From assembly GCF_001677475.2 (NCBI RefSeq), contig NZ_CP015229.1: a stretch of DNA of 64,000 bases. The stretch is one strand, 5' to 3'. The notes beneath the pieces were generated by a model. It saw nothing but the letters and a program-made list of their open reading frames with translations, had not been told where the DNA came from and searched no databases. Source of the stretch: Escherichia coli (GTDB lineage Bacteria > Pseudomonadota > Gammaproteobacteria > Enterobacterales > Enterobacteriaceae). Position numbers and translations under genes: made by a program. Positions 47,031 to 47,994 of this stretch are shown here, one piece after another (the stretch's first letter is position 1; every line of letters begins with the position of its first letter).

Positions 47031-47396
47031 ATGGACTGGTATCTGAAAGTACTAAAAAATTATGTCGGTTTCCGGGGTCGTGCGCGGCGCAAAGAGTACT
47101 GGATGTTTATTCTGGTCAACATCATCTTCACGTTCGTGCTGGGGCTACTGGATAAAATGTTAGGCTGGCAACGCGCAGGTGGCGAAGGCATCCTGACGAC
47201 AATCTACGGTATTCTGGTGTTTTTACCGTGGTGGGCGGTTCAGTTCCGCCGCCTGCACGACACCGACCGCTCGGCGTGGTGGGCACTGCTATTCTTAATC
47301 CCGTTTATCGGCTGGCTTATTATCATCGTCTTTAACTGCCAGGCGGGTACGCCAGGCGAAAACCGCTTTGGACCAGATCCAAAACTGGAACCTTAA
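47031..47396 (+). CDS. yhaH: DUF805 inner-membrane protein; start set at MDWYLKVLKNY
   Basis: Track ORF 47010..47396. Confidence 0.8.
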   Translation: MDWYLKVLKNYVGFRGRARRKEYWMFILVNIIFTFVLGLLDKMLGWQRAGGEGILTTIYGILVFLPWWAVQFRRLHDTDRSAWWALLFLIPFIGWLIIIVFNCQAGTPGENRFGPDPKLEP

Positions 47397-47409
47397 AACA
47401 AATCTGCTC

Positions 47410-47438
47410 GCCGGATGTCTGACTCATCCGGCTTTTAT
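47410..47438 (+). terminator. Intrinsic terminator after yhaH
   Basis: GCCGGATGTCTGACTCATCCGGC + TTTTAT. Confidence 0.5.
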
Positions 47439-47637
47439 CATTATGTTGATGAATGAATAATTTACTAATGTTTATTTAAAATATTTCAATGTCGTTATAT
47501 AAATTACCTATAAAAAATAACCATGTATTTATCTTAAATATCAAAACCTTTATAACATCCGAAAAAGAAAGATACGAATAGCATTTACACAATACCCGGA
47601 ATAGACTTTCGTCACTTTTAATTAAAGGGATGTTTTT

Positions 47638-47994
47638 ATGCAGTGGTATTTATCCGTATTAAAAAATTATGTTGGTTTCTCTGGTCGCGCACGTCGTAAA
47701 GAGTACTGGATGTTTACTCTGATTAACGCCATCGTCGGCGCTATTATCAATGTCATTCAATTGATTTTAGGTTTAGAGTTTCCATTCCTTTCTCTCATTT
47801 ACCTGGCAGCAACAATCATTCCGATCATTGCTCTGTGCGTTCGTCGTCTGCACGATACTGACCGTTCAGGTGCGTGGGCGCTTCTCTATCTGGTACCGAT
47901 CATTGGCTGGTTAGTTCTGTTTGTATTTGCCTGTTTAGAAGGCAATTCTGGCAGCAATCGTTACGGAAACGATCCGAAGTTTGGTTCAAATTAA
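47638..47994 (+). CDS. yhaI: DUF805 inner-membrane protein, tandem paralog of yhaH
   Basis: ORF in track; shares (W/Y)LxVLKNYVGFxGRARRKEYWMF and RRLHDTDRS blocks with yhaH. Confidence 0.8.
   Translation: MQWYLSVLKNYVGFSGRARRKEYWMFTLINAIVGAIINVIQLILGLEFPFLSLIYLAATIIPIIALCVRRLHDTDRSGAWALLYLVPIIGWLVLFVFACLEGNSGSNRYGNDPKFGSN

Follow-up and report, generated by a model that had tools for sequence, protein, structure and literature searches.

The yhaH and yhaI genes of Escherichia coli adjoin one another on the chromosome and encode two small inner-membrane proteins of the DUF805 family. Their arrangement was analysed in a 64-kb stretch of E. coli DNA (contig NZ_CP015229.1 of assembly GCF_001677475.2), which is referred to as a whole as the window. 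The principal finding is that yhaH is the conserved copy, found in most Enterobacteriaceae, and that yhaI is accessory, lying outside the E. coli core genome on a 652-bp segment that some strains carry and others lack. The anatomy of the locus, this pattern of presence and absence and the structure of the yhaI alleles were established directly in this analysis. The E. coli tandem depends on this accessory segment and is not a fixed inheritance, and the segment is probably silenced by H-NS. As a whole, the reading favoured here, in which a conserved yhaH stands beside a separately controlled and silenced yhaI on an accessory segment, is considered moderately probable. The pair itself is ordinary, long annotated and already known. 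Taken alone, the description in an earlier note on this DNA, of two annotated y-genes from a known domain family, is of little importance.

yhaI as an accessory gene within Escherichia

The window derives from a chromosomal locus common to the species, since positions 46700-48100 are matched in 5,422 of 5,426 complete E. coli genomes. The yhaH gene (47031-47396, + strand, 121 aa) is followed by yhaI (47638-47994, + strand, 118 aa) and then by yhaJ (48045-48941, - strand), a LysR-type regulator gene by Pfam and annotation that is convergent with yhaI. The two DUF805 genes were defined from the open reading frames (ORFs) and Pfam, with RefSeq annotation for yhaH and base composition for yhaI, and the span 47031-47994 runs exactly from the yhaH ATG to the yhaI stop codon. 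The gene order yqjF-yqjG-yhaH-yhaI-(yhaJ)-yhaK is that of K-12 b3101-b3106, as annotated in RefSeq for K-12 and other E. coli strains.

The yhaI segment is absent from about 1,060-1,070 of the 5,426 genomes (approximately 20%), including that of CFT073. Alignment of the window to strains SCU-102, CFT073 and FDAARGOS_1267 delimits the accessory segment to 47392-48043 (+ strand), a stretch of 652 bp with approximately 36% GC. It contains the last 1.7 codons of yhaH, a terminator, an AT-rich spacer, yhaI and the yhaI terminator. In yhaI-less E. coli and in other Escherichia 40 bp (AAGAATAATAATTAAGCACCTTGTAAAAGGTGCTTAATCG) are found in place of this segment. In the three yhaI-less strains yhaH ends in KLEQE*, followed by only 40 bp with a different hairpin, TTAAGCACCTTGTAAAAGGTGCTTAA, and then by the yhaJ stop codon. 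Standing in place of these 40 bp, the segment supplies the final yhaH codons as well as the yhaH terminator.

The yhaI-less junction, KLEQE* with the AAGCACCTT hairpin, is also present in E. albertii and in three other Escherichia-labelled representatives, and in three of these four Escherichia representatives a repetitive extragenic palindromic (REP) element is inserted in the junction hairpin. With yhaI lacking from about 20% of E. coli, from E. albertii and from three other Escherichia, and lost from at least one genome labelled C. amalonaticus (L016), the pair does not show the uniform presence expected of vertical inheritance. Since yhaI is outside the core genome, results obtained with the gene in K-12 or O157, such as the 36-fold effect of Ler described below, are not transferable to yhaI-less strains such as CFT073. 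Given its AT-rich spacer and its responses to Ler and CpxR, yhaI is a small chromosomal model, readily open to experiment, of a putatively silenced accessory gene beside a conserved paralog. In several strains (E. coli genomes H1, H77 and H93) yhaI is interrupted by IS1 insertions.

A vehicle and a donor for the segment were both sought. Plasmid or phage carriage was rejected, as matches above 60% were found only in mis-filed chromosomes and the Shiga toxin (Stx) phages contain only a 40% identical DUF805 sequence. No donor species emerged for the segment or for either form of the yhaI core, the best YhaI from outside E. coli among 5.8 billion proteins being only 60-68% identical.

Distribution at the locus in Enterobacteriaceae

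For comparison between species the highly conserved yhaJ was used as an anchor, and the DUF805 content between yqjG and yhaJ was recorded in the 80 species representatives recovered. A single yhaH ortholog occupies the locus in 67 of them, and eight have no DUF805 gene there. Three have two copies, the second being of yhaI type in Citrobacter sedlakii and of a third type in Huaxiibacter and a Lelliottia. Intestinirhabdus alba has a yhaI-type gene only, and in C. amalonaticus ku-bf3 a yhaH body ends in the tail and terminator of a yhaI-type gene. The yhaH ortholog (53-100% identical) is therefore found at the locus in 70 of the 80 (67 as the sole copy, two with the third-type copy and one with the yhaI-type gene), and a second DUF805 gene, a yhaI-type gene or traces of one in only five. 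Protein matches added three further carriers of a yhaI-type gene in the same slot, namely C. rodentium, other C. amalonaticus strains and Superficieibacter electus.

Five species other than E. coli thus have a yhaI-type gene in this slot, namely C. rodentium, C. amalonaticus, C. sedlakii, S. electus and I. alba. The Citrobacter spacers that precede it are 223-225 bp long with 28-30% GC, and can be aligned with the E. coli spacer over no more than the final ~60 bp upstream of the ATG. A terminator motif resembling TTCGGGGCAAT...TTGCCCCGAA is common to all yhaI-type genes, including those of other genera. On account of the common site, AT-rich spacer and terminator, the yhaI unit seems to have arisen only once and to be distributed very patchily.

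The gene of C. amalonaticus ku-bf3 (L016, ~5973-6340) is a chimera of a yhaH body with the last 8 codons and the terminator of a yhaI-type gene, and is the product of a deletion by recombination between the conserved 3' ends of the paralogs. In S. electus (L087, 2619-4360) three DUF805 genes lie in tandem, a divergent copy of 145 aa, yhaH and the yhaI-type gene, and an Ldh_2-family gene is inserted after yqjG.

Relationship of YhaH and YhaI

Both proteins belong to the DUF805 family (PF05656), for which the Pfam gathering score is 25.7 bits. YhaH scores 120.9 bits (E 4.5e-35) over profile positions 1-111 of 111, and YhaI 109.3 bits (E 1.8e-31) over positions 1-110 of 111. The proteins are identical at 63 of 118 residues (53%; BLASTP, E = 1e-44), and share the blocks VLKNYVGF, GRARRKEYWMF and RRLHDTDRS. 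These blocks are the conserved motifs of the whole DUF805 family. Across 63 diverse members R17, R20, W24, P62, R69, R70, H72, D73 and N107 are invariant, and all are present in both YhaH and YhaI. Both also contain the signature elements of the family, an N-terminal GR..R.EYW, an RRLHD that follows the second helix and a C-terminal N.(F/Y)G.DP. In DNA, identity between the genes is only 56%, although it reaches 78% over the first 99 nt, and the longest exact runs measure 19 and 13 nt.

The two genes adjoin in the same orientation, are homologous over their full length and have starts 607 bp apart. Between them synonymous divergence (dS) is saturated and non-synonymous divergence (dN) is 0.43. 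In a neighbour-joining tree the YhaI-type clade is recovered with 61% bootstrap support and the YhaH clade with 76%. YhaI evolves approximately 3.5 times faster than YhaH, dN between E. coli and C. rodentium being 0.31-0.34 for the former and 0.09 for the latter. Within the favoured reading, and under the same joint and moderate degree of confidence, yhaI would belong to an old and fast-evolving subfamily, putatively sister to that of yhaH.

The earlier note had described tandem DUF805 paralogs with long identical motifs that arose by an old duplication. The tandem is confirmed by the Pfam scores, the protein identity and the exact coordinates, and the motifs by pairwise alignment, at the protein level. 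The duplication is old as far as the age of the paralogs is concerned, given the saturated dS, the dN and the YhaI-type clade at the same locus in several genera. As an account of the history it is incomplete, because within Escherichia the yhaI segment is a presence/absence polymorphism and not a fixed, vertically inherited tandem pair.

Terminators and the AT-rich spacer

Downstream of yhaH, 14 nt past the stop codon, lies an intrinsic-terminator-like hairpin with its tail (47410-47442, + strand). The hairpin (47410-47432) has an 8-bp stem with 6 GC pairs and a 7-nt loop, GCCGGATG-N7-CATCCGGC, followed by TTTTATCATT. With a folding energy (dG) of -15 kcal/mol (z = -4.4), it is more stable than all 200 shuffled sequences. 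A second GC-rich hairpin, GGGGCGATATTTCGCCCC (48005-48022), is situated between the convergent yhaI and yhaJ, with dG of -16.3 and -16.6 kcal/mol and, on the + strand, z of -4.7. It is followed on that strand by the T-run TTTTTATT and preceded by an A-run, and for this reason could terminate both genes, as judged from sequence. An intrinsic terminator was taken to be a GC-rich stem-loop with a T-run directly after it that is more stable than shuffled sequence, and both hairpins have this form. Activity of the yhaH terminator in vivo is supported only indirectly, by the differing fold changes of yhaH and yhaI described below.

The spacer between yhaH and yhaI is 241 bp long with 27.8% GC. The 205 bp beyond the hairpin (47433-47637, + strand) have only 22.9% GC, in comparison to 50% for the window overall, and among the 200-bp stretches of the window 47440-47639 ranks second in AT content. 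The composition is that expected of xenogeneically silenced DNA, with low GC in the spacer and in the segment as a whole combined with patchy presence, and this region may be an H-NS-silenced, activator-dependent promoter region for yhaI. The GC content of yhaI is 42.9%, and at third codon positions (GC3) it is 0.42 compared with 0.63 for yhaH. A weak candidate core promoter, ATAGCA-18-TAGACT, could be placed at 47578-47607 (+ strand), in the only block that can be aligned with the Citrobacter spacers. A Shine-Dalgarno-like AAGGGA (47625-47630, + strand) is read 7 nt before the yhaI ATG. A CpxR-box-like sequence, ATAAACATTAGTAAA (47461-47475, - strand), with one mismatch to GTAAA-N5-GTAAA, is found 163-177 nt upstream of that ATG; the window contains 12 such sequences, with 4.0 expected. 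A scan with a 10-bp H-NS motif was too permissive to be informative. The earlier note had reported about 240 bp of very AT-rich DNA with its own terminator, and both are borne out, the terminator as a sequence feature.

Regulation of yhaI and yhaH

Published expression data, obtained in strains with near-identical spacers, show different responses of the two genes. On overexpression of CpxR in K-12, arrays gave a 1.9-fold change for yhaH and 3.2-fold for yhaI, and quantitative reverse-transcription PCR gave 40.3-fold for yhaI, equal to spy (PMC2731931, Table 6). The gene is not listed among those reduced in a cpxR deletion strain (PMC2731931, Table 7). In enterohaemorrhagic E. coli O157:H7 yhaI is activated 36-fold by Ler, comparable to the genes of the locus of enterocyte effacement (LEE), and yhaH is not listed (PMC3891560, Table 5); yhaI is the only Ler-activated gene of the set that lies outside the LEE and off mobile elements (PMC3891560). 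The Salmonella yhaH gene is expressed and is a target of repression by the small RNA SdsR (PMC5137417). Separate control of yhaH and yhaI is supported, mainly by these published data. Together with the strong hairpin after yhaH they uphold the divergent regulation that the earlier note had suggested.

Ler is a protein of the H-NS family that relieves H-NS silencing of AT-rich DNA, and on this basis the AT-rich spacer would be an H-NS-silenced promoter region. With H-NS-silenced, Ler-derepressed promoters such as those of the LEE operons yhaI shares AT-rich upstream DNA, low GC3, a patchy distribution and activation by Ler. It differs from such targets in that the segment is only 652 bp long, is not located on a pathogenicity island, prophage or plasmid, and contains a gene paralogous to the adjacent one. 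In the same way yhaI resembles members of the Cpx regulon in being CpxR-induced, as spy is, in its small inner-membrane product and in the one-mismatch box upstream, and differs from them in that this box lies far upstream (-163 to -177) and is not shared by other genera.

Origin and control of the pair

On the favoured reading yhaH would be the conserved DUF805 gene of a yqjFG-yhaH-yhaJK locus, in which the segment 47392-48043 would have replaced, in E. coli, an ancestral 40-bp spacer between yhaH and yhaJ. With it would have come yhaI, ~205 bp of DNA with 23% GC, and two terminators, a new one at which yhaH transcription ends and one that yhaI shares with the convergent yhaJ. H-NS may bind and silence the AT-rich spacer, so that yhaI would normally be off, and yhaI would be transcribed independently of yhaH from a weak promoter near 47578-47607 that depends on an activator or anti-silencer.

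Several observations weigh against this account. A scan of 46700-48100 for sigma-70 promoters (two hexamers, -35 and -10, spaced by 16-18 nt and together matching the consensus at 9 or more of 12 positions) gave no consensus site, with 3.5 expected in shuffled sequence. The best relaxed candidates for yhaI, scored by hand, reach 8 of 12 or fewer, so that the promoter attributed to yhaI in the earlier note is not visible in the sequence. The CpxR-like box deviates from the consensus at one position, is located in AT-rich sequence and shows no conservation in the spacers of Citrobacter, Superficieibacter and Intestinirhabdus. The effect of CpxR overexpression on yhaI may be indirect, and the literature search found no other paper linking yhaI to Cpx. 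It likewise retrieved neither a transcription start site nor binding data for H-NS, Ler or CpxR on the spacer, and the silencing step is inferred from base composition and the known action of Ler. The union of YhaI and YhaH has only 10% bootstrap support in the neighbour-joining tree. Finally, without a donor an insertion in E. coli is indistinguishable from an ancestral pair that was later replaced by the short spacer through recombination within Escherichia.

A plain vertical history, in which an early enterobacterial tandem duplication of yhaH was kept by E. coli and the absences reflect independent losses, is possible but rather unlikely. In its favour are the finding that yhaI-type genes, in five other species from three genera, always occupy the slot between yhaH and yhaJ, and the similarity of YhaH and YhaI (131-140 bits), which equals, and does not exceed, the best among 1.8 billion representatives. 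Loss by recombination between paralogs is moreover demonstrated by the chimera of C. amalonaticus ku-bf3. The same history would need losses in 75 of the 80 sampled species representatives, and leaves yhaI and its spacer with a composition very unlike that of their neighbours. The yhaI-less junction of E. coli is also not a yhaH/yhaI chimera and is the same in E. albertii and three other Escherichia representatives, which indicates one shared, older state.

That yhaH and yhaI form a single operon, with the spacer as an attenuator or processing region and yhaI lacking a promoter of its own, is improbable. The genes are on the same strand, the spacer has no consensus promoter, and a putative 'yhaH yhaI yhaJ' operon was listed by Bury-Mone et al. 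(PMC2731931); yhaJ is on the opposite strand, so this published grouping is positional only. Against an operon stand the stable hairpin and T-tract after yhaH, the fold changes of 1.9 and 40 with CpxR, the presence of yhaI alone in the Ler set, and the yhaI-type gene of I. alba, which occurs without yhaH. It is more improbable still, to the point of being scarcely credible, that the spacer encodes a product of its own, either a small RNA or a small protein. It does contain ORFs of 30 aa (47489-47581, + strand) and 38 aa (47476-47592, - strand), but these are not conserved, since the spacers of E. coli and Citrobacter cannot be aligned outside the last ~60 bp. A search of Rfam gave no match in the spacer even at E <= 1, and no feature is annotated there in K-12 or other RefSeq genomes.

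Two classes of yhaI allele

The strains that have yhaI mostly carry one of two major alleles, and that of the window is not the K-12 allele. When K-12 yhaH (b3103) and yhaI (b3104), both PF05656, are compared with the window, order, lengths and locus are the same, yhaH shows 99.2% DNA and 100% protein identity, and the spacer between the genes is 100% identical. The yhaI genes are only 84% identical in DNA and agree at 100 of 118 residues. Feature by feature the window and K-12 are 98-100% identical except in yhaI and in the yqjG-yhaH spacer (89%).

Of the 56 differences in yhaI, 55 fall inside a dimorphic core of 173 bp (47773-47945, + strand; nt 136-308, codons 46-103), which is ~32% divergent and encodes the second transmembrane helix, the RRLHDTDRS loop and the third transmembrane helix. 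In the core dS is 1.73 and dN 0.22. Outside it dS is 0.026 for the remainder of yhaI, and for the flanking genes 0.036 (yhaH) and 0.071 (yhaJ). The dS of the core is comparable to that between E. coli and Citrobacter (1.6-1.9). Among the 5,426 genomes the window type is found in ~2,288 and the K-12 type, with 72.4% identity to the window core, in 2,078. Rare mosaics between the two types occur (P0004, P0006 and P0008). The haplotype of the window is itself a mosaic, with a spacer that is K-12-like at all 7 informative sites and a core like that of strain 1190.

In the neighbour-joining tree the two E. coli cores group most closely with one another, and the search of 5.8 billion proteins revealed no closer core sequence outside E. 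coli. Gene conversion from yhaH was rejected as the source of the core, since yhaH is no more similar to the window allele (56.4% in DNA) than to the K-12 allele (59.3%). Conversion from another genomic copy was also rejected, the core query matching a median of one place per genome and two at most.

It is conceivable, though we consider it quite unlikely, that the three states of yhaI (absent in ~20%, K-12-type in ~38% and window-type in ~42%) reflect long-term balancing selection, or frequency-dependent selection, acting on the membrane-embedded part of this small envelope protein. The idea draws on the intermediate frequencies, the genus-level divergence of the core, the near-identical flanks and the lack of a donor among the organisms sampled. 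A 2025 preprint reports YhaH to be a host factor of two coliphages, PhiWec188 and PhiWec190, to which yhaH mutants are resistant and from which complementation rescues them. Phages acting on DUF805 proteins would therefore be a concrete and testable driver. The three-state polymorphism with its sharply bounded core is the only mildly surprising element at this locus and a modest new detail. No report of it was retrieved in the literature searched, and we do not claim that it is unpublished. The sharp bounds of the two-allele core make it a clean candidate for studies of recombination and selection on small membrane proteins.

Protein structure and fused relatives

By hydropathy analysis both proteins are small with three hydrophobic helices. 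An AlphaFold2 model built from the 63-sequence alignment has a predicted local distance difference test (pLDDT) score of 92.6. It consists of a short N-terminal helix, three long helices (20-44, 50-73 and 78-99) and a C-terminal tail. This confident model predicts YhaI to be a small three-helix inner-membrane protein. No similar solved structure was found by sequence in the PDB (best E = 0.3) or by fold using Foldseek against the PDB (E > 6), and NCBIfam gave only sub-threshold matches.

The DUF805 family comprises more than 28,000 clusters at 50% identity. Among the 148 closest representatives 32 are fused proteins with two to four DUF805 units (for example P0121-P0131). In P0121 to P0124 (233-270 aa) the units are arranged in series, each with GRxxRxEYW and RRLHD, a side-by-side theme like that of yhaH-yhaI. 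The E. coli pair differs from such fusions in consisting of two genes that are regulated differently and are separated by 241 bp containing a terminator. By analogy, these natural fusions suggest that the DUF805 unit works as an oligomer and, as many DUF805 proteins are fusions of two to four domains, YhaH and YhaI may likewise form homo- or hetero-oligomers.

An unannotated ORF 40% identical to YhaI is present in the Shigella Stx phages 75/02 (NC_029120, 16349-16693) and POCJ13; a DUF805 gene is therefore carried by Stx phages.

Neighbouring features of the window

Upstream of yhaH a terminator-like hairpin (46751-46770, + strand) with dG of -13.3 kcal/mol (z -3.7) lies right after the yqjG stop codon. 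The remainder of the yqjG-yhaH spacer contains a REP-like repeat region (46788-46943) that, compared site by site, is ~20% diverged from K-12 with a 9-bp indel and is nearly identical to that of strain 1190. Part of it (46788-46822) has a weak, sub-threshold match to RF02564, the REP-derived naRNA4. On the far side of yhaJ two overlapping CpxR-box-like sequences, with one mismatch each, occur at 49016-49040 in the divergent yhaJ/yhaK promoter region.

AT content in the window peaks at 41121-41320 (19% GC), a stretch within 39847-41388. The latter region contains a CS1-type fimbrial subunit gene (PF04449) and a PapD-like chaperone gene directly upstream of a GntR/FCD-family regulator gene (41389-42165). 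From its length and its position on the K-12 map we take this regulator to be exuR, and the fimbrial genes upstream of it are presumably not part of the K-12 arrangement.

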